Program-made: the position numbers and the translations under genes
The notes under the pieces: model-generated
What the model was told of the DNA's origin: nothing
What the model saw: only the letters and a program-made list of their open reading frames with translations
Databases searched by the model: none
In this document: positions 1,380-64,000 of the stretch, one piece after another
How the letters are laid out: every line of letters starts with the position of its first letter
Position numbering within the stretch: the stretch's first letter is position 1
NCBI GenBank assembly: GCA_964016885.1
Contig: OZ024761.1
Coordinates: 17,112,001 to 17,176,000 of the forward strand
Direction of reading: 5' to 3'
DNA: 64,000 bases
DNA from: Eledone cirrhosa
Taxonomy: Eukaryota

Positions 1380-1424
<45 letters not shown>

Positions 1425-1625
1425 AAAGTTTTATTTAAGATTGTTGGGTTACAACGAGTAAATATTTTATAACTGATATAAAAGCACTCAACAGTTTCTG
1501 GAGTAGGTTTACGATATTAAACAAATGGAAACTATATTTATAAAACCATATTTATGTCAATAATTGTCAATAATTATTTATGTCAATAATTGTCAATAAT
1601 TATTTATAAAACAGCTTATGTATTG

Positions 1626-1691
1626 TATTTTGTCTGAGGAAGGCATACCATAGTTTTAATATGATATCCCAGAAATATATATAACAAAATA
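1626..1691 (+). ncRNA. Type I hammerhead ribozyme, partly degenerate
   Basis: tattttgt CTGAGGA agg-c-atacca...tgatat-c-cca GAAA tatatat A acaaaata; stem I has a compensatory G-C. Confidence 0.7.
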
Positions 1692-1731
1692 AATATGGTT
1701 TTATAAATATAGTTTCCATTTGTTTAATATC

Positions 1732-1766
<35 letters not shown>

Positions 1767-2112
1767 CTTGATCACCTTGACCGACCAGTCTGTCGGGCGT
1801 CCATTCGGCGCCGCTGGTCACAGCTCGTCGTGTTGTTTTAGCCATAAGATAACGCCATCCCACCGGCTGGGCGGGCAGGCCCCGGTACTCATTTCTACAG
1901 CTGATACTGAACTTTACAGTGGAATGATAGGGACCCCAGTACCTATCATCTCATTTCTACAGCTGAGTAAACTGGAGCAATGTGAAATAAAGTGTCTTGC
2001 TCAAGGAAACAACACATCACCCGGTCCGAGAATTGAACTCACAACCTTTCGATTGCAAGCCCAATGCTCTAACCACTAAGCCATGTGCCTTCACAGGGTC
2101 GTTGGGGAATAT

Positions 2113-2862
2113 GTCATTTTTTATATTCCATGTGCCATTACCAACCTCAATTTTCTCTATAACCTTCGTTTTGTGTAGAAAATTACACTTTTCATATATA
2201 CTAACCTACGCAAATCCGGAAAATGGCACTGGAACAAGACAACACCACTTCAAATCAACATTTGAAAAGATGGCTTTTGCAGACCCATCGAAACCGGTCA
2301 TTTTTTATATTCCATGTGCCATTACCAACCTCAATTTTCTCTATAACCTTCGTTTTGTGTAGAAAATTACACTTTTCATATATACTAACCTACGCAAATC
2401 CGGAAAATGGCACTGGAACAAGACAACACCACTTCAAATCAACATTTGAAAAGATGGCTTTTGCAGACCCATCGAAACCGGTCATTTTTTATATTCCATG
2501 TGCTATTACCAACCTCAATTTTCTCTATAACCTTCGTTTTGTGTAGAAAATTACACTTTTCATATATACTAACCTACGCAAATCCGGAAAATGGCACTGG
2601 AACAAGACAACACCACTTCAAATCAACATTTGAAAAGATGGCTTTTGCAGACCCATCGAAACCGGTCATTTTTTATATTCCATGTGCCATTACCAACCTC
2701 AATTTTCTCTATAACCTTCGTTTTGTGTAGAAAATTACACTTTTCATATATACTAACCTACGCAAATCCGGAAAATGGCACTGGAACAAGACAACACCAC
2801 TTCAAATCAACATTTGAAAAGATGGCTTTTGCAGACCCATCGAAACCGGTCATTTTTTATAC
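2113..2862. repeat. 184-bp tandem repeat, ~4 copies
   Basis: Identical ORF starts at 2223, 2407, 2591, 2775. Confidence 0.95.
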
Positions 2863-2956
2863 CCTTTATTATTTCCTTACCTTATAAAATTATGTTTTTT
2901 CACAAAAAAGTATTCTGTCTCTTATATATTCCATGTGCCATTACCAACCTCAATTT

Positions 2957-3040
<84 letters not shown>

Positions 3041-3090
3041 ATTTTGTTTATCGTGAACTTGTGCGCCGATTTTCCGATACTCGATTATTC

Positions 3091-3134
<44 letters not shown>

Positions 3135-3357
3135 AAAAAAAATATGGGTCGGTCAACTTTCGTCGAACCGGACCGAGGAAACAATGTTTCCGTTGGTCTT
3201 TCCAGTTGCTTGTACTATCTATCGGCCGCAACTCCAAGTAGAAATATATATATATATATCCAGGGGGTGTAACTTGGAGTTACTGCAGGTTCACCCGGTA
3301 GAGCACTCGATGTTTTGGTTCATTTTTGTGATGAGGTGTAGAGCTATACAGAGTGTA

Positions 3358-3596
3358 ATATATTGAAAGGATAACAAGGAGGATTGATTACTCCTTCATT
3401 GCATTTATTGGTAGGTGACGCGCGTTTCGCCACTGATGCTATAAGCATTTTAAGAGGGTCCGTCGAGCTGCCGATTATTGAGTCGGGTAAGATCAATACA
3501 GATCGAACCTTGAGCTGATCAGTGGCGAAACGCGCGTCACCTACCAATAAATGCAATGAAGGAGTAACCAATCGTCCTTGTTATCCTTTCAATATA
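3358..3596. repeat. Inverted repeat, ~80-bp arms
   Basis: 3358-3438 pairs with 3518-3596; contains GAAACGCGCGTC. Confidence 0.85.
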
Positions 3597-4439
3597 TATA
3601 TATACGACCATGACTTCTGGCGTCACGCAGTAATACAGAGTACCCGACCTCCCATGGGTACAAGCTGAAACATATAGACAATATGCCCCCACTCCCCCCA
3701 CCGCAAGGTGGTCGTGGAGGTGCCACGGCAAAAAAGCACCCAGCACTCACTGTAAATGAGGTTGGTGTTAGGAAGGGCATCCAGCTGTAGAAATCAAGCC
3801 AAATCAGTTCCTGTATGAGCAAGACATGGTCAGCCGACCAGACACTGCCCACAACAGGACAACCCGTCTAACCCATGCTAGCGTGGAAGAACGGACGTAA
3901 AACGGTGATGATGAAGGTGTGGTAAGAAACTGGATGTACCATAACATGCCAGTATAGTTGATACTTAGGGTAGTAGAGTGGCTAATAGGATCTAGCTGTC
4001 GAAACGGCTGGAGCTCAGCCATCGAGATTCTGACTCTTTTCCTATATATAAATTGGAGTGAAAGCAACTGGTGCGTGTGTTTCTTATTGGCAACATGACC
4101 CTCCCAAAGCATAACAATATCGGTTTCAACACACATTTTCAGATAAAGAATCTTGCTAAACAAATTCAGAAACGAAATATATATATAAAAACATATATAT
4201 ACAGTGTAAGCCCGCCATTCACGGTCCAGGCGTTCGCAGTCCTGGTTATTCACAGAATTTTTCTTAGAACCTAACTAAAAATTGTTCATGCAAACGACCG
4301 CATATTCGCAGAATCGTAAATATCTTCCATGATTTTTTTTATGGCTTTTTTCGGGGCAATAAATATTTTGCAACATTGTTGTTCATATACATGCAGCATA
4401 CAGTCTGCCTTTTATTTTGAAGAAAAAAACTTTTTCAGT

Positions 4440-4800
4440 TAGCTGCAGTTGTAGCTCCCTGAACTTTCTCCAACCCAAACTCACACTGCTAACTATGGTT
4501 TTGGAACACCCTCCTCCACTGCTGATTTGGTCCATCCAGGTAACAGAAACTATTTACCACTTCTAAAGAGCCCTGTGGGCATTTGAAGGAGATAGTATCC
4601 TGAGAGCTTTTGCTACTTCCCCTGTGCACTGGCCACATGTAAAAACCTACGTTCCTTATTAGCCTGCCTGAGATCCCACTGCATCTCTTGTGTACCCTTA
4701 GTTTGCATGTGGGACACAGGAGGGAATTTCCTGATTTGGTCAATATAGACCCATCCAACCCTTGCAAGCTGGGAAAGCAGACGTTAAACAATGATGATGA
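4440..4800 (-). mobile_element. RTE LINE fragment (PHD/FCYL region)
   Basis: CPTCKLRVHKRCSGISG...VVNSFCYL, similar to 29385-30113. Confidence 0.8.
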
Positions 4801-4945
4801 TGATGATGGAGTTAAAAATAAAAGATGAAATAGAAAGATAAAGAGTGAGAAGAGGAAAGATGGGAAAAATAAACTGAGAAAAAAACACACATGCGTATTC
4901 AGTCAGCCATTTTGGAGATATATATAAAGCGACTGCTTTACGTAG

Positions 4946-5018
<73 letters not shown>

Positions 5019-5157
5019 GAATTTCATATACATATCTATATACCTCCCTATGTTGGTAAGTTCATGTACATGCACTCACTCAAATCTCAACCTCATACAA
5101 CAGCCAGCCCTTTCACAGTCCAAAGTCCATCCTTCAAACCTTTGCACAAACAAACCT

Positions 5158-5191
<34 letters not shown>

Positions 5192-5225
5192 TTAAAAGAA
5201 TAGAGGTGTAACACACAAGTTATGA

Positions 5226-5600
5226 TATATTGGTAAACGGAAAAGAAAATGCTGACAAATTGTTCACAGTGAAAAATAGTTTAATTAGGAATAAGTGAGA
5301 ATTAGTAATAGTATTGGTTAGTATTCAGTTTTGGTTTTAAGTTTTACCGGTTGCGCATTTCTAATGCTTTTCAAAAATAATTTTGAGATAGAGCGTCCGT
5401 GATGTTTGCTCTAATCTGATCAGAGCAAACATCACGGACGCTCTATCTCAAAATTATTTTTGAAAAGCATTAGAAATGCGCAACCGGTAAAACTTAAAAC
5501 CAAAACTGAATACTAACCAATACTATTACTAATTCTCACTTATTCCTAATTAAACTATTTTTCACTGTGAACAATTTGTCAGCATTTTCTTTTCCGTTTC

Positions 5601-5607
<7 letters not shown>
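5226..5607. repeat. ~190-bp-arm near-perfect palindrome; related element at 62460-62890
   Basis: Arms are reverse complements around ~5416. Confidence 0.9.
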
Positions 5608-5645
<38 letters not shown>

Positions 5646-5803
5646 ACACACATATATATATATATACACACATATATGAATATATGTGTGTGTGTATGGC
5701 TGGGATATATTTGATATTAGGTATACTGGATGAAGGTTGACCTGCAGCTAAACAATACCAACAACAACAGACATATAGAAAGAGAACAAAATGGTTTTCT
5801 TAC

Positions 5804-5916
5804 CAAACTACTGGCTCCAAGTGACCACATCATTAGAAAAAACAATGCTGACCACAATGCAGCCAGAGGCATCTCGGCAAGACATTCAGGATATGCCACA
5901 AATGCTAAGCCAGGAC
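5804..5916 (-). CDS. SLC6 exon: EL4/TM8 ([38 protein letters not shown])
   Basis: 113 nt, cag/gtaag. Confidence 0.96.
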
Positions 5917-5965
5917 CTGTAATAGATAACGTATATATATATATATGTATATATATGTATATATA

Positions 5966-6013
<48 letters not shown>

Positions 6014-6505
6014 GGAGAGATGACCCCTTAGCCTTTGTCAAGGCAGAATTCTAGGAGAAGGAAAACTCTGATATAACACCTGCAACCCTGATGGAATCCA
6101 ATGATGTTGACTTGTTCTTCTTTTTGGTAAATATCATCTTGGTTAAGAGAGTGGGACTGGTTTTGTGCAGTGCCTTTGCTCACTATAAAAGCTTCACGGC
6201 ACAGGCATTGCTTTATATCTGGAGATCTCTCTGCACTTGTCATCACATGGTACCATGGGCCCAGGACTATGTGTCAATAATTGTCACAAGTATAGTGTTT
6301 GTACCAGAGTTTTCAAGTCGCTGGCTGGACTAAAATGTCACACTCGTTCAGCGCATCGGTAGGGGTTCTCCTACATGGATATAAAGTAGTGGCCGTACTC
6401 GAAAACGAGTTGGCAGCCAACATATATATATATATATATCATCCTCATCATCATCATCACCACACTACCACATTACACCACCTTACCATCCTATCAACAT
6501 CTAAC

Positions 6506-7855
6506 CAGAGGTTCTCAAACTTTTGGGGCCACCCCCTCACAGCCACGTAATATCCTCAGCGCCACCAAACCCTATTTCCAGAAAGACCTGCCAACACACA
6601 AATTGTAAATAATATATAAATAAAATCGTTAATTTATATATAATAAATAATTGTTTCTACTTTTTGGCACAAGGCCAGCAATTACCCAGTACATTACTGG
6701 TACTTTATTTTATCGACCCCGTAAGGATGAAAGGCAAAGTTAACCTTAGCGGGATTTGAACTCAGAATGGCAAGGGCTGCAACTCTATGCGTCAAAGCAT
6801 GGCGTCCGACCCTCTACCGATACTGCCAATTCACCGCACGTATAATAAAAAATACAATTCGTTTTTGAATTTGTTTTACAAGATTTCTTATCTGAAATCG
6901 TGTGTTGAAACAGATATTTATACTTTGGGAGGGTCATGCTGCCAATAAAAACACATGCACCTGTTGGGCTTCACTTCAATTTATTATAAGTTTCCGGTTG
7001 TTTGGTTGGTTCGATAACCAGAAGGTTGTTTATATATTCATCATCATCATCATCATTTCATTTTACGTCCGCTTTTGCCTGCTTGCAAGGGTGGGACGGG
7101 AACTGATTCTGGCTTGATTTCTACAGCTGGATGCCCTTCCTAACACCAACCTCATTTACAGTGAGTGCTGGGTGCCTTTTTGCCGTGGCGCCTACACGTC
7201 CACTTTACAGTGAGTGCTGGGTGCTTTTTTGCCGTGGCGCCTACACATCCACTTTGCAGTGGAATGATAGGGAACCCAGTCCCTATCATCTCATTTGTAC
7301 AGCTGAGTAAACTGGAGCAATGTGAAATAAAGTGTCTTGCTCAAGGAAACAACACATCACCCGGTCTGAGAATTGAACTCACAACCTTTCGATTGCAAGG
7401 CCAATGCTCTAACCACTAAGCCATGTGCCTCCATTGTCAAATAATATAATATATACTATGTATAAATGAATATTATATATTTTTTATTTTACTATATTTA
7501 TATATAATATGTATCATTTGATATTTAACCCTTTAGCATTTACATTATTTTATATTTACTATCGTATTTTCATGGAAAAGGCTTTACCTCACATAATATC
7601 GAATCTATGAGATTTTGATGTTATTTATTTTGAGAACAATACCTTAACATCAGTATGAGTGGTCAGTTACGGCCAGTTTGAACAGAAAGAAGTGAGAGAA
7701 TTTTGGCTGGATATGGCCGGTTTAAATGCTAAAAGGTTAATGTATTATTATATCATCTCTACCCACCCCACTTCCCCCTTAGGCTTCATTGCCCCCTGGA
7801 CCTTCTCAATGCCACACGGAGGGGGGGGGGGTAGCGCCCACTTTGAGAACCTCTG
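6506..7855. mobile_element. hAT-like MITE expanded by nested insertions
   Basis: TIR cagaggttctcaaa / tttgagaacctctg; near-TSD catctaac/atctatac. Confidence 0.65.
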
Positions 7856-7880
7856 ATCTATACAGAGTAGTAATACATAC

Positions 7881-8005
7881 CATCATCCACAACTTGATCT
7901 AGTGGTACTCCTTTCTTGTGCGCCATAAAACCCAGCACTGAGAAAATGGCAAACCCAGCAAAGAAACTTGTGAGGCAATTGATGAAGGGCAGTAGAATAC
8001 TGTCT
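7881..8005 (-). CDS. SLC6 exon: TM7 ([42 protein letters not shown])
   Basis: 125 nt, cag/gtatgt, conserved N..TS..AGF.IFS.LG. Confidence 0.96.
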
Positions 8006-8033
8006 CTGTTGGGAGAGAAGATATTTAATTAAT

Positions 8034-8244
8034 TTAACCCTTTAGCATTTACATTACTCTATATATACTATTATATTTTCATTGTAAAGGCCTTACCTCA
8101 CATAATTATCTCAGATAATATCGAATCTATGAGATTTTGATATTATTCATTTTGAGAACAATACCTTAACATCAGTATGAGCGGCTGATTACAACCGGTT
8201 AGAACAGAAAGAGGATATGGTGAGTTTAAATGCTAAAGGGTTAA
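8034..8244. mobile_element. TTAA-flanked (piggyBac-type) MITE; copies at 7526-7740, 13989-14187, 32544-32944, 48429-48735
   Basis: ttaaccctttagcattta...taaatgctaaagggttaa termini and shared interior. Confidence 0.8.
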
Positions 8245-8599
8245 ACCTTTCGTTAACCTTCTTCTTCTTCTTCTTCATAGCCCACTTATTTTTGAGAGGG
8301 TTGTTGGGGCAGAATCTGCAAACAACTCCTTCCAGTGGGTGCTGTCAGAAGCAACTGTTTCCAACGGTTACCCTATGTTGATAATTGTGGTTTAGTGGTT
8401 CGAGTGTTGGGCTCTGATTCATGAGATTGTGAGTTTGATTCCTGGACTGAGTGATATGTTGTGCCCTTGAGCAAGACATTTCATTTTACGTTGTTCCAGT
8501 CCACTCAACTGTAGAAATGAGTGGCAGCGTCATTGCTGCCAAGTTGTATCAGCCTTTGCTTTTCCCTTGGACAACATCATATATTGTATATCTATCTAT

Positions 8600-8848
8600 C
8601 TAAGGCGGGTAAAATTCCCGAGATCCATGGACGAGTTCTCTCCAGCGGTCTCTGTCCCTCATTATCGCTGCCATGTCCTGCGTCTCCAACAGACCAGTGT
8701 CTGTCCTTAGGGCATCAACATACGTTAACCTTGGTCTTCCTCTTCTAGTGTGTCCATGTAGGGGCTCCCAAAGGAGCACTGAGTGCAATGTCAACTCTGG
8801 ATGTCGGTGAGCATGTCCAGCTAACCTCAGTCTCCTCTGTGTCACTGT
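8600..8848 (-). mobile_element. Second LINE family, 3' end
   Basis: RRLRLAGHAHRH...LLWEP.HG...RGRPRLTYVD; second copy at 61586. Confidence 0.85.
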
Positions 8849-9033
8849 GTATATATAGATCGGGAAAAAAGACGTGACTATTTTACGTAAGTGGCTTTGG
8901 TTTGAAAACAAAGCCAGTCATCTTTATATATACATATATACATATATATATATATACATATATACATATATATATATATACATATATACATATATATATA
9001 TCATCATCATTTTACGTCCACTTTCCCTTTGCA

Positions 9034-11608: not shown

Positions 11609-11675
11609 ATATATTTTATCTGATGAGAGCGTACTAAGGTTTTGGTACCCTTGAAATATATATAATAGAATAAAT
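11609..11675 (+). ncRNA. Type I hammerhead ribozyme
   Basis: CTGATGA 11620-26, stem II gag-c-gtacta/tggtac-c-ctt, GAAA tatatat A, stem I pairs with one G-U and one mismatch. Confidence 0.8.
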
Positions 11676-11843
11676 ATGGTTTTATAAATATAGTTTCCAT
11701 TTATTAATATCATTGATATATACATATATATATACATACATACTTTTATATACATATACATACGCATACATAATGCATACAGACATATACACACATCCAC
11801 AAGCATCTAAACAGTGACGCTAGATATTACTGAAGCATTTTAC

Positions 11844-18792: not shown

Positions 18793-18852
<60 letters not shown>

Positions 18853-18888
18853 ATTAACAAATGGAAACTATATTTATAAAACCATATT

Positions 18889-18955
18889 TATTTCATTATA
18901 CATATTTCAAGGACACCAGGTTAAATTATGGTGTGCTTTCATCAGATAAAATATA
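18889..18955 (-). ncRNA. Type I hammerhead ribozyme (sense to SLC6 pre-mRNA)
   Basis: Reverse complement: tattttat CTGATGA aag-c-acacca...tggtgt-c-ctt GAAA tatgtat A atgaaata. Confidence 0.8.
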
Positions 18956-19802
18956 ATATAGAGCAGTTTTATAAATAAATATTGACATACCCTTAAAGAA
19001 TGCAACCATTACTGTTGGAAGCTCCCGGATAGTGACACATTTGTTGAGTGCTTTATATCAGTTATAAAAATATTTGCTTGTTGTATCCCAACAATTTAAA
19101 TAGAACTTTTACATATATATATATATATATATATAATAGCAGAGGTAGTATATATAAAACCCGGGAGTGGGGATATTCCCAGGTCCCATTAAAATGCCCA
19201 ATACCTCGCAGACCAAAAATGAAATCAAAATATAGGACAGATAATGAAAAGTGAAGACAAATTCATTTACAAAACAATAATTGTTTCTACTTTAGGCACA
19301 AGGCCAGCAATTACCCAGTGCATTACTGGTACTTTATTTTATCGACCCCGTAAGGATGAAATGCAAAGTCAACCTCGGCGGGATTTGAACTCAGATCGTA
19401 AAGGGACGTAACTATGTTGGAAACAAAACAATAATACAAACAAATATTGTTGATTGCATTGGTCAGGTAAAAAAAGGTTTCTCAGAAAAGTTGAGTGTTG
19501 CTATAAGGAAAAAAATAGGACCCCCATTAGGGTGTCTTAATATTATTGAAATTTGCTGAAATTTTATGAATAGGCATCAAATCTTGTCATTTACCTCTGG
19601 TTTAAATTTCATATTAATCGAAGGGAAAAAGTTTTCAGAGGGGGTTTGAGCCCCCGGGGAGCCTTTGATAAAAAATGAAATAAACGTAAGAAATCAAATG
19701 GGCATGAGCCCCACACACGTGTCAAGTTTCATCAAGATCGGTTTGGTAGTTTTTGAGTTTTAGGTTCACAAACAAACACACAAACAGACAGAAATTGCCA
19801 TT

Positions 19803-19859
<57 letters not shown>

Positions 19860-20655
19860 TTATATTATATGTGTGTATGTGTGTGTATATGTATATATAT
19901 ATATATATTGTATGTGTGTATGTGCGTATATATATATATACATGTATGTGTAAATGTATATATGTGTGTGTGTGTGTATGTATGTATGTGTGTGATTATA
20001 TATATATATATATATGTGTGTGTGCATGTGTGTGTAAATGTATATATGTGTGTGTATGTATGTATGTGTGTGTGTATATATATATACCCTTGCAAGCAGG
20101 GAAAAGCGAACATATGATGATGATACAGGGTGTCCCAAAAAATGCATACACACTTTGATTACCTGTACAGGCAATATTTATTAGAATGCTGTTGAAATGT
20201 GGTTTTTGTGTGTGTGTGTGTATGTATATCATTCATTATTCATTTCATTTTACGTCCGCTTTTCCCTGCTTGCAAGGGTGGGACGGGAACTGATTCTGGC
20301 TTGATTTCTACAGCTGGATGCCCTTCCTAACCCCAACCTCATTTACAGTGAGTGGTGGGTGCTTTTTTGCCGTAGCACCTCCATGACCACTTTCCAGTGG
20401 AATGATAGGGACCCCAGTCCCTACCATCTCATTTCTACAGCTGAGTAAACTGGAGCAATGTGAAATAAAGTGTCTTGCTCAAGGAAACAACACATCACCC
20501 GGTGTGAGAATTGAACTCACAACCTTTCGATTGCAAGCCCAATGCTCTAACCACTAAGCCATGTGCCTCCATATATATATACATATGTATCAATGCCAAA
20601 ACAATTATAAGAGTGCCACCCTTGCAAGCAGGGAAAAGCGGACGTATGATGATGA

Positions 20656-39452: not shown

Positions 39453-39897
<445 letters not shown>

Positions 39898-44765: not shown

Positions 44766-46750
44766 TAATATATTATTATATCAAACAATGAGGTGATAAA
44801 ACAATAATGTGTTATCATCATCATCATCATCATCTTTGTTTAGTGTTGATTTTTTCATGCTTGCATGGGTTAGACGAATTATCCTCACCAGGAGGCAAGT
44901 CTGGCCATAGTTGGCGAGGACTGTAAATTTGGCCGGGTACTTTACAGCTGGATGCCCTTCCTAACACCAACCACATTTACAGTGTGGCTAAGTAACAGAT
45001 ATTTCCCTCATACAGAAGAAATCACTCATCCAGTTTCTTGTTCTTGTATTCTATGTTTGTATGTTCTTACTGATAGGAAGAAAATTGACAGTGTTTAGAA
45101 CACCAGGTAGAATTGTTTGTGATATTCATTCCAGTTCTCTGTTCTCTAAGTTCAAATGCAACCAAGGTCAACTTTGCTTTTTTATCCTTTTGAGGTTGGT
45201 AAAAATAAGGTACCAGTTAAGTACTGGGGCTGAATCTTCCACTATATCTCCTTCTCACTTTCTTTCTAACACTCTCTCTCCTTCTCTGAAAAAAATCATT
45301 AGTTTTCTGACCTGGAGAGAGAGAGAACGGATGGGCTTCACCAGGATTCTAAATGCCCAAGAAACACTGTATGTCTGTGACTACAGCGCTTCTATAATTC
45401 CATGAAGAGTTATGGGTCCTTACATACATGTTTTTATCAGGTTAAACTTTGTCACCCACCACCAAAAAACAAAACAAAAAAAAAAAACAACAAAAAAAAA
45501 AAACACACACACAAAACAAAGAATACCCAGCAGGATCTCGTAAGTGTCAAACCATACTACTGGCATCAAATAAGAATGAGGAGTAACCTATGAAATAAAG
45601 GAGAAAGATCAGGTGAAGAGTCTTCGACATACTTAGCATGACTACAACATTTACATCAGGTACGGGCAACCTTTTATGAGCAGTGGGCTGCATTAGATGT
45701 GGCTCATCATTAGGTGAGCTGCATGACTAAAAATATTAGGCTTGCCATTAAATTAGGTATACTATTAAATTATTAATCTTGCCATTAAATTGAACATGGC
45801 ATTAAATCAAACTTGCCATTAAATTAGGCATATAATTAAACCAGACACACCATTAAATTAAACATGCAATTAAATTAGGCATGCCATTAAATCAGACATT
45901 AAAAAGCATGCCTTTAAATCAGACTCACCATTAAATTAAGCATGCCATTAAACTAGGCTTGTAATTAAATTAGACAAATCATTGAATTAAGCATGCTTTT
46001 CAGAAAGCCAAACAGTCCCGTTTTCCCATGAAGGGGTTAAATAGGCAGTATGACAGTTGAGCTGGATCAACTATTAATCTTATTTTCCTCAGTAAAAAAA
46101 GTCCTTAAAAAACAAACAAACAAAAATAAACTGCAACCAACTAACCTTAAGTGTGTAGATAGTGATTGTTATTTACCCTTAGAATATATACACCCAGTTG
46201 ATAGCAAACAGCAGGTGTCGTGATGTGTAGATAGTGATTGTTATATACCCTTAGAATATATACACCCAGTTTTTAACATAAAGAAGAGTAGTGATCTTCA
46301 TCATCATGTTTGTGTGTGTGTATATATATATATATACATATATATACATGTGTATATACATATATATATATGTGTGCATATATATATATGGAGGCACATG
46401 GCTTAGTGGTTAGAGCATTGGCCTTGCAATCGAAAGGTTGTGAGTTCAATCCTCAGACCGGGTGATGTGTTGTTTCCTTGAGCAAGACACTTTATTTCAC
46501 ATTGCTCCAGTTTACTCAGCTGTAGAAATGAGATGATAGGGACGTAAAATGAAATGATGATATATATGTAGGAGGTGAGTTTTATTGTGGTACAATAAAG
46601 CAATGCAGATATCGGATAAGTAGCACTCTACAGTTTGTAGGACTGGAGTATAAAATACATGGAACTCTTTTAACCATCTTTTGATCTTATATATTATATA
46701 TATATATGTATATACACACATACATTATATATATATACACACACATTATG

Positions 46751-62132: not shown

Positions 62133-63140
62133 ATTTATATATATATGATGGCTGCCCCTTCGTTATCGAGTATTGCCATTGCATGATAAAATTAAAAAAA
62201 TATACACACATATATATTAATAATTAACGGTGCTGCAATCAAATGTGGCTTTTTAGTCCATGATTGACAAAAGACAGTTCAGAGTTTAATCCAATTTGAA
62301 AATTTCCAGTCATAGTAGTTTCTTGAAACCTTTGGTAATGGAATAATTATATTGTGTTGTTTATTGTGTAATTTAATAACTCTGTACTATATATAGAGCA
62401 CTTTTCTTTTCTTTACCTTTTCTACGGAAATACTTAACACACACACATATATATATATATAGTTAAAAGAATAGAGGTGTAACACACAAGTTATTATATA
62501 TTGGTAAACGGAATAGAAAATGCTGACAAATTGTTCACAGTTGAAAAATGGTTTAATTAGGAATAAAAGAGTATTAGTGATTGTATGGGTTAGTATTCAG
62601 TTGTGGTTTTAAGTTTTTAAGTTTTTACCGGTTGCGCATTTCTAAATGCTTTTCAAAAATAATTTTGAGATAGAGTGTCCGTGCTGTTTGCTCTGATCTG
62701 ATTAGTTTTGGGAATTCTACCTGTTTTTATGTTAAAAAAGTGGCTCCAGCATTGCTTAAAAACTTAAAAACTTAAAACCACAACTGAATACTAACCCATA
62801 CAATCACTAATACTCTTTTATTCCTAATTAAACCATTTTTCAACTGTGAACAATTTGTCAGCATTTTCTATTCCGTTTACCAATATATATATATATTAAT
62901 TCAAAATATTAATAAATATAGACATTCAACGTAATCAAAATATATTTTATTATATATATTTTGGAGGTACTGTGCTGTTTTTTCAGTACGTCCTCACTTT
63001 CTCCTACTCACCCTCTCCATTATATTTAGTTTGTCATGTTAGTACTTAAGGTATATAAATATTGAGTTTTGTTGAAATTAATCACTGCCAAGACTGGAAT
63101 TGAACCATCAGCACAGTTGAGGTATGTCACACATCAATTT

Positions 63141-63212
63141 ATATATTTTATCTGATGAGGACGTACTGAAAAAACAGCACAGTACCTCCGAAATATATAT
63201 AATAAAATATAT
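63141..63212 (+). ncRNA. Type I hammerhead ribozyme (intact)
   Basis: Stem I atatattttat/ataaaatatat (11 bp), CTGATGA 63152-58, stem II gga-c-gtactg/cagtac-c-tcc, GAAA, stem III tatatat, AUA cleavage site at 63201. Confidence 0.85.
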
Positions 63213-64000
63213 TTTGATTACATTGAATGTCTATATTTATTAATATTTTGAATTAATATTAATAACTCCAGAAAACTTTTACTGTTGAGTGCTTCTAATC
63301 TATTGTAAAATTATATTCATTGATTAATCAATGAACCTTGTTTATCTTTTGGTTAAAGTTATGTTGGTATCACAACATCCAGTCTGAAACAAATGAGGGC
63401 GTGTAGGTGTCACGACAAAAAAACACACAGTCCACGCTGTAATGTGGCCGTGTAGGTAACACGGTAAAAACCTCCCAGTTCCACACTGTAAACGTGGTTG
63501 GTGTTAGGAAGGGCATCCAGCCGTAGAAAACCCGCCAGACAGTCCTATGCGAGCAAGGCAACCACTCTTGCCTCAAGTGGGAAAAACCCATCCAAACCCA
63601 TGCAAGCGTGGAATATCAACGTTAAACGATGATGATGATATATGTGTATGTTTGTGTATATATAATATGTATCTAATTTACATAATGGTGCAAGATTTAA
63701 GTGGAATGTAAAGTAGTCAACACAACACTGTAAATCAATGAAACATTCACCAAAGTCCAATTCTGTTTCAGGCCAAAGATATGTTTAATGCTACGATGCC
63801 AAGGAAACAGAAAACTCATGCAAAACCAAAACCAAAACAAGTTTCGAAACCAAAAAGGTAAAAAAATTTTTTTTTTTTTAATTGTTGGCTTCCCCGATGG
63901 CACGATTGGTTAGTGTGCCATACTTATACCCATGTTTATTACCAGTGGGAAGATATGCAGAAGTTCAAGTCCCACTAGGGGCAGATAATTTTGAAAATTA

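Follow-up and report, generated by a model that had tools for sequence, protein, structure and literature searches.

Minimal type I hammerhead ribozymes are known from the pLTRs of metazoan Penelope-like elements (PLEs), where they combine a tiny palindromic helix III with a long helix II, form covariation-rich families, occur mostly as single motifs dispersed with truncated elements and partly as opposite-strand pairs 100-700 bp apart, and have a low activity, with weak cleavage predicted for dimers (Cervera and de la Peña 2014, PMC4209133; Lünse et al. 2017, as reviewed in PMC6765202). The hammerheads described here, from Eledone cirrhosa, share this architecture, dispersal, covariation and pairing on opposite strands, as well as the predicted weak dimeric cleavage. 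They differ in a longer, AU-rich helix I (at least 8 bp), in a copy number well above the 2,000-9,000 per genome given in those sources, and in the pair G10.1-C11.1, which has been called highly conserved in PLE hammerheads (PMC4209133) and is not conserved here.

Within the PLEs, the Hydra clade is marked by the motif DKT, a CxCX5C linker, CxxC and CxH, the lack of a CCHH motif and a (TA)n target (Craig et al. 2021, PMC8557442). According to the same study its elements are generally short (<3 kb, a tendency rather than a definition), carry a tail of 30-40 bp, often at one end only, and have hammerheads with frequently a U at position 11.1; all 26 Hydra hammerhead rows of its File S2 show a C15.2-G16.2 pair and GUH triplets, none of them showing AUA or U15.2-A16.2. 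The supplement also contains Hydra-1_Obim of Octopus bimaculoides, whose hammerhead has a different sequence. Since earlier publications thus already describe hammerheads both for Penelope pLTRs and for Hydra elements, the ribozyme found here is an expected one in a new host family, and the suggestion of an earlier note on this DNA, that the family is undescribed in this lineage, can stand at most for this one family. For Octopus vulgaris, the main text of a repeat annotation reports 30 recently active Penelope families and mentions neither ribozymes nor Hydra (PMC13282606); the present family may be among them. A search confined to the literature, with few subscription papers among it, on hammerheads and Hydra-clade Penelope elements in octopus and other cephalopods did not find this family. 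New, in our reading, are a very abundant autonomous family of the known Hydra/PLE type, a hammerhead variant absent from the published Hydra table, and a pairing of two kinds of insertion ends.

The window, i.e. the whole 64-kb stretch of DNA that was analysed, contains hammerhead cores starting at positions 1634, 11620 and 63152 on the forward strand and at 18945 on the reverse strand (Table 1). All four loci have the layout that had been read from them in the earlier note (stem I - CUGANGA - stem II - GAAA - UAURUAU - A - stem I'), and the core (C3 U4 G5 A6 N7 G8 A9 ... G12 A13 A14 A15.1, U16.1, H17) is complete in each. Correctly given there were also the halves of stem II, the C·C mismatch at 10.4/11.4 (position 4 of stem II), the swap to G-C in stem I of the 1634 copy, which lies at 2.2:1.2, and the predicted cleavage position, which corresponds to A17. 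The 1634 copy shows two further mismatches, A·A where stem II begins (10.1:11.1) and C·A further out, both of which had gone unmentioned, and its minimum free energy structure is not a hammerhead (fold z -0.94). The 63141 copy is the only one of the window that folds clearly better than shuffled sequences, the other three (z -0.94 to -1.59) folding no better than these. A fifth copy is inverted and faces the 63152 copy head-to-head; its 5' truncation falls within the core, and its G12 is changed to A. Comparison with Rfam Hammerhead_1, which had been proposed as a check, detected no window copy at E≤1: the 91 Rfam matches at this threshold comprised microsatellite-driven miRNA matches and tRNA-like SINE heads and no hammerhead family, so that Hammerhead_1 misses this AUA, (AU)4, C·C variant.

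Table 1. Hammerhead motifs and insertion arms in the window (S and L, the short and the long, tailed 3' end)
Feature	Position	Strand	Basis
Solo pLTR arm of the Hydra-type PLE, subfamily C, ending at the L 3' end	62995..63355	+	94-96% identity to both L119 pLTRs; end class
Type I hammerhead	63141..63212	+	sequence, fold z -3.17, pair counts
Stem I of the 63141 hammerhead	63141-63151/63202-63212	+	
CUGAUGA of the 63141 hammerhead	63152-63158	+	
Stem II of the 63141 hammerhead	63159-63168/63180-63189; C·C at 63162/63186	+	
GAAA of the 63141 hammerhead	63190-63193	+	
Palindromic stem III of the 63141 hammerhead	63193-63200 (A63193-U63200); predicted cut after A63201	+	
Inverted arm of the 63152 insertion, S 3' end in (TA)n; core truncated, no complete ribozyme	62893..62996	-	
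Arm of subfamily A with its S end in (TA)n; holds hammerhead 1623-1694 (core 1634, mismatch A·A at 10.1:11.1)	1592..1740	+	
Partner of the preceding arm in the 1634 insertion, inverted, with its L end in (TA)n and without ribozyme core	1416..1562	-	
Single arm of subfamily D with its S end in (TA)n; 5' truncation immediately before hammerhead 11609-11675	11609..11723	+	
Arm resembling subfamily B with its S end in (TA)n; holds hammerhead 18886-18956 (core 18945)	18841..19035	-	
Partner of the preceding arm, inverted, with its L end in (TA)n; comprises the tail only (+66 to +145 from the cut site)	19041..19118	+	

Covariation was counted in 49 copies hand-picked to span the subfamilies, with a shuffle control that takes the copies as unrelated. 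With relatedness ignored in this way, 93.3% of the helix cells were paired, compared with 37-54% when the partners were slid, and pairs changing on both sides were found for nine of nine pairs in helix II and four of eight in helix I, helix III being invariant and uninformative. Conservation of the core was counted in 272 copies aligned by BLAST, a partly circular set, as many of the loci had been found with patterns containing the core: the full core is kept in 245 of them, N7, which is a position free to vary in hammerheads, differs from U in 43, and every other core position differs in at most 8, mostly by scattered single changes or gaps. Pair counts and core conservation together indicate that the structure is under selection, and they support the earlier identification of a type I hammerhead with a covarying stem II, a minimal palindromic stem III and an AUA triplet.

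Both sides of the C·C mismatch are conserved (C at 10.4 in 256 and at 11.4 in 264 of the 272 copies). At position 11.1, 224 copies have U and 42 have C, the pair 10.1:11.1 being mostly A-U or G-U; a G10.1-C11.1 closing pair is present in the 63152 copy and not conserved in the family. Compared with the Hydra clade, the hammerhead has a longer stem II with the C·C mismatch, a stem III of AUAURUAU and an AUA triplet, and set against the 26 tabulated Hydra rows the AUA cut site, the (AU)4 palindromic stem III and the conserved C·C appear to be new. Distant hammerhead families have unrelated stems I and II and keep the C·C and the AU palindrome; their copies (L099:1984-2315, L171:1933-3245 and L094:574-659) stand in part as head-to-head pairs. 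Forming stem III in a monomer is calculated to cost about 2-3 kcal/mol, and pairing of two palindromes as a duplex to yield only -2 to -3 kcal/mol, from which a weak cutter is predicted whose cleavage depends on a dimer or a protein; with AU-rich helices and so costly a monomeric stem III, activity may be very low.

The proposed connection with Penelope-like elements was borne out, RT/GIY-YIG ORFs being found beside hammerhead pLTRs. At locus L031, same-strand hammerheads 3.7 kb apart enclose a frameshifted RT and GIY-YIG ORF between pLTRs that are 96.7% alike, and the same pLTR-ORF-pLTR order, again with pLTRs about 97% alike within the copy, is found at L119, the full-length, frameshifted element both of whose pLTRs match the arm that carries the 63141 hammerhead. 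A genome search with the endonuclease piece gave 147 scored matches among 77,739 candidates, from which 20 loci were fetched, chosen for long open frames; a matching hammerhead is present at all 20, and four have an uninterrupted ORF of 735-745 aa with RT and C-terminal GIY-YIG. From hammerhead to hammerhead the unit measures 3,676-4,416 nt (9 copies) and consists of the pLTR, a 5' leader of about 190-210 nt after the cut site, the RT/GIY-YIG ORF, a long 3' UTR and the second pLTR. One of these proteins, P0001, is encoded by a single ORF of 745 aa, is about 50% identical to the L119 protein and has 236 full-length database relatives, the 120 best listed being 32-48% identical and mostly having the same motifs. 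Pfam gave no match for the whole of P0001 and, for five ORF pieces, one sub-threshold match (GIY-YIG, PF01541, E 1.5e-4), on the L031 piece. In the ORF of L070, an asparagine-rich stretch whose length varies among copies lies between RT and endonuclease (residues about 480-520); N-rich inserts have been described for rotifer Penelope (PMC3846280).

Within 1.5 kb, tblastn matches the ORF at 15 of 30 loci of type C and at 7 of 20 of type D, and in the window itself tblastn with P0001 found no ORF remnants. The pLTRs arising from partial tandems, the inverted 5'-truncated copies and the tail were all seen, as in EN+ Penelope-like elements. The designation as a non-autonomous retroelement family could not be upheld, as all four subfamilies of the window are tied to a same-orientation RT/GIY-YIG ORF elsewhere in the genome and uninterrupted ORFs flanked by a hammerhead pLTR exist; judged from their sequences, the short copies go back to an autonomous element whose insertions were truncated at the 5' end. 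Taken together, we hold with high confidence that the motifs are the pLTR hammerheads of an autonomous Hydra-clade PLE present in tens of thousands of 5'-truncated copies; its ribozyme is predicted to be weak, and its insertion likely involves priming from two ends in (TA)n on uncut RNA.

Assignment to the Hydra clade was made from motifs, target and hammerhead, and is probable on these grounds. P0001 contains DKT (residue 118), with neither DKG nor DKA, YRDD (352), CxCx5C (604), VVY..YVG (623-640), CxxC (702) and CxH (729). It has no CxxC between VVY and YVG, which we take to be the position of the CCHH motif, and thus no CCHH. (TA)n of at least four units abuts 101 of 112 insertion ends. Shared with the clade and with Hydra-1_Obim, to which the likeness of the protein was judged by eye from the supplement, are the single ORF with RT and C-terminal GIY-YIG and all these motifs; shared with the clade are also the (TA)n target, a hammerhead near the 3' end, the common U at 11.1, and truncated copies that are tandem or inverted with a tail on one end. 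The element departs from the clade in its unit of about 4 kb, which exceeds the published size owing to the long 3' UTR, in its tail of about 90-100 nt, and in its tens of thousands of copies and at least four subfamilies. At the N-terminal motif, which is RWK in Hydra elements, three of the four intact ORFs have RWR and P0001 has RSR. The first RT match found beside a hammerhead (L026/L034) had raised the Naiad/Chlamys PLEs, which are described as having an N-terminal GIY-YIG, a DKA motif and no canonical hammerhead (PMC8557442); they were rejected, the endonuclease being C-terminal, the motif DKT and a hammerhead present. Near L025, a GIY-YIG fragment of the CxxC type is separated by (TA)n and has the opposite orientation, and was therefore assigned to another element. 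At L035:4955-5590 (-), a GIY-YIG fragment with a CxxC linker adjoins a hammerhead copy across (TA)n and presumably belongs to a different, Neptune-like Penelope clade.

The genome retains hardly any copy that begins or ends at the ribozyme's cut site. Among 100 copies anchored 3' of this site, at most one has its start within 1 nt (read by eye), 2 of 112 arms have their 5' end at the site, and 117 copies run into (TA)n at the cut site compared with 57,452 that read through, which suggests that integrated copies come from uncut RNA. By analogy with its relatives, cleavage by the ribozyme after A17 would require either pairing of two copies through the 8-nt AU palindrome or binding of the protein encoded by the element, and the ribozyme would trim or destroy read-through transcripts instead of defining integrated ends. 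The hammerhead fold might alternatively be kept for a non-catalytic task, as a protein-binding or RNA-pairing signal beside the priming sites, with no cleavage in vivo, an explanation that would leave the identity of the element unaffected. The non-canonical 10.1:11.1 pair, the C·C mismatch conserved even in the distant families L099, L171 and L094, and the missing genomic trace of cut RNA would all fit; however, every catalytic position is kept while N7 varies among subfamilies whose proteins are only about 50% identical, and published Hydra hammerheads likewise have U at 11.1 (PMC8557442), so that we consider this rather unlikely. The predicted weak, conditional cutter is retained as the preferred reading.

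Counted from the cut site, the insertions have two fixed 3' ends, S at about +50 to +60 and L at about +140 to +160. Among 174 copies, the 3' end falls at +30 to +69 (S) in 82 and within +130 to +159 (L) in 75, and 9 run on into the ORF; the S and L sites both carry a short AUAU in the leader, next to (TA)n. As both sites lie just 3' of the ribozyme, nearly every truncated copy contains it, which accounts for the appearance of a dispersed ribozyme family. The 5' ends are scattered from -4 kb to +100. In a first set of head-to-head insertions (duplicates L136 and L140 left out), one S and one L end were combined in 55 of 56 (binomial p 8e-16 against 50%), and in a held-out set the same was found for 27 of 29 classifiable insertions, after leaving out L203 (the same place as L117), L200 and L206 (an arm continuing towards the ORF) and L205 (not head-to-head); both sets together give 82 of 85. 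The exceptions, all S+S (L191 and L208 of the held-out set, L052 of the first), may be independent neighbouring insertions. Single-arm insertions also occur, e.g. at window position 11620, either member of a pair can be the long arm, and the arm at 62995-63355 lacks (TA)n after its L end, unlike most copies.

The two arms of an insertion represent the same sequence variant (median identity 0.987), each being at least as like the other as any other copy in 24 of 30 cases, and they often overlap by hundreds of bases. Such overlaps require either that strands are displaced on a single RNA or that two templates of the same source are used, so that twin priming of the L1 type alone is insufficient; to our knowledge, the RTs of PLEs lack RNase H. 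Among 12 L arms that start beyond +40, seven begin at +65 to +73, just 3' of S. The pairing of S and L ends suggests twin priming, in which each side of the cut target likely initiates copying, at one of two fixed sites. The GIY-YIG domain would cut both strands of (TA)n, one DNA end would prime reverse transcription at S and the other at L, aided by microhomology between AUAU and (TA)n, and both cDNAs would stop early and then be joined 5' to 5'.

This scheme has to be weighed against the proposal that the inverted arms arise from a single self-primed cDNA, folded back and later resolved by the endonuclease, without priming from two ends. Self-priming has been proposed for Penelope inversions (PMC3846280) and endonuclease-mediated resolution for the tail (PMC8557442), and the close likeness of the two arms agrees with it. 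At L072, L121 and L128, however, the long arm is the one with the S end and is truncated in the ORF, and the short arm holds tail sequence that is absent from the long arm; one cDNA cannot supply this, and S arms whose missing tail is carried by the partner exclude a simple fold-back. At window 18841-19118 and similar insertions, moreover, the L arm (+66 to +145) has no overlap with the S arm at all. We therefore regard an origin by self-priming as quite unlikely and keep to priming from both DNA ends.

Uncut template and ends at two sites agree with in vitro work on the Poseidon element PAc of Anolis, in which reverse transcription starts at two internal sites, both target strands are cut and extended, the ribozyme is assisted by protein and uncut RNA is the main template (Frangieh et al. 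2024, PMC11167929). The two systems have in common two RT starts that lie 3' of the ribozyme and bracket the tail, an AT-rich target and the uncut RNA template. In contrast, the PAc starts as described there are located within the ORF, have no homology to the cut DNA and do not differ between top and bottom strand, whereas both sites are here in the 5' leader, their AUAU matches (TA)n, and each insertion has one of each. The near-strict S+L pairing and the lack of copies from cut RNA constrain integration models for Penelope-like elements. A more far-reaching proposal is that programmed twin priming is the rule behind the inverted-repeat-plus-tail structure of PLEs, with a dimeric RT/EN, S and L used on the same uncut RNA, the polymerase from L often stalling at the one from S, and the hammerhead acting as a gate or pairing signal; in this full form we find it plausible but, on balance, slightly doubtful. 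If true, programmed twin priming has made the ribozyme motif one of the commonest in this genome. The term twin priming is absent from the PLE papers turned up by our literature search on Penelope and pLTRs.

Another explanation would be a non-autonomous, retrozyme- or SINE-like family, in which a short non-coding hammerhead unit is amplified through circular RNA or in trans. Retrozymes consist of tandem non-coding units with a hammerhead in each (bioRxiv 10.64898/2026.07.22.740005), and non-LTR retrozymes share with the present copies the type I hammerhead and an origin from PLE pLTRs, from which animal retrozymes derive (Cervera 2020; bioRxiv 10.64898/2026.07.22.740005). Short ribozyme-bearing copies do vastly outnumber those bearing an ORF, and a common 5' boundary, near window 62995, is seen in many C-type copies. 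Yet no short head-to-tail hammerhead arrays occur among the scanned loci: same-strand pairs of the same family stand 3.7-4.4 kb apart around an ORF, and the others are dispersed or head-to-head. In addition, 5' ends are scattered and the cut site is neither start nor end of integrated copies, a cognate ORF exists for each of the four subfamilies, and the copies are dispersed truncations of a coding element instead of non-coding tandem repeats. This explanation is thus largely refuted and very improbable for the family as a whole; a minority of solo pLTRs may be transcribed from a promoter of their own and moved in trans. The preferred reading remains an autonomous element with truncated copies.

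The high copy number claimed in the earlier note was confirmed for the 3.0-Gb genome, in which a relaxed pattern gave 63,897 matches (12 in controls) and a strict one 13,664 (none in controls). This corresponds to about one motif per 47 kb, the four of the window being somewhat above the mean of 1.4. A chance motif or assembly artefact, which the AU-rich low-complexity context and the lack of an Rfam hammerhead match might suggest, is refuted by these counts, by the four matches to core plus stem III in the window (mean 0.01 in shuffled sequences, none of 100 shuffles reaching four) and by the contigs of two public runs of unspecified kind, which cover the element in 30 of 30 and 29 of 30 bins and may be the assembly's own source and so perhaps not independent. 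The Hydra clade has been described from about 27 families as a minor one; here it accounts for about 64,000 ribozyme-bearing ends, and this abundance, together with uninterrupted ORFs, makes the element a ready substrate for biochemistry.

Several other repeats were noted in and around the window. A near-perfect 192-bp palindrome lies at 5225-5609; part of it recurs upstream of the L071 insertion, whose flank also resembles window 62830-62890, so that another repeat may supply (TA)n targets. A long satellite array with a 27-bp period and a strong G skew extends from 14728 to about 18000. tRNA-like SINE heads are located at 2026-2083, 7366-7423, 20504-20561, 39569-39626 and 46399-46456, and inverted matches of 250-430 bp occur among these SINE copies and among other repeats of the window. 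At 3.6 kb beyond the 3' end of the window, an open frame (L036:3573-3965) is probably a host exon, with what we take to be a WD-repeat-like stretch.
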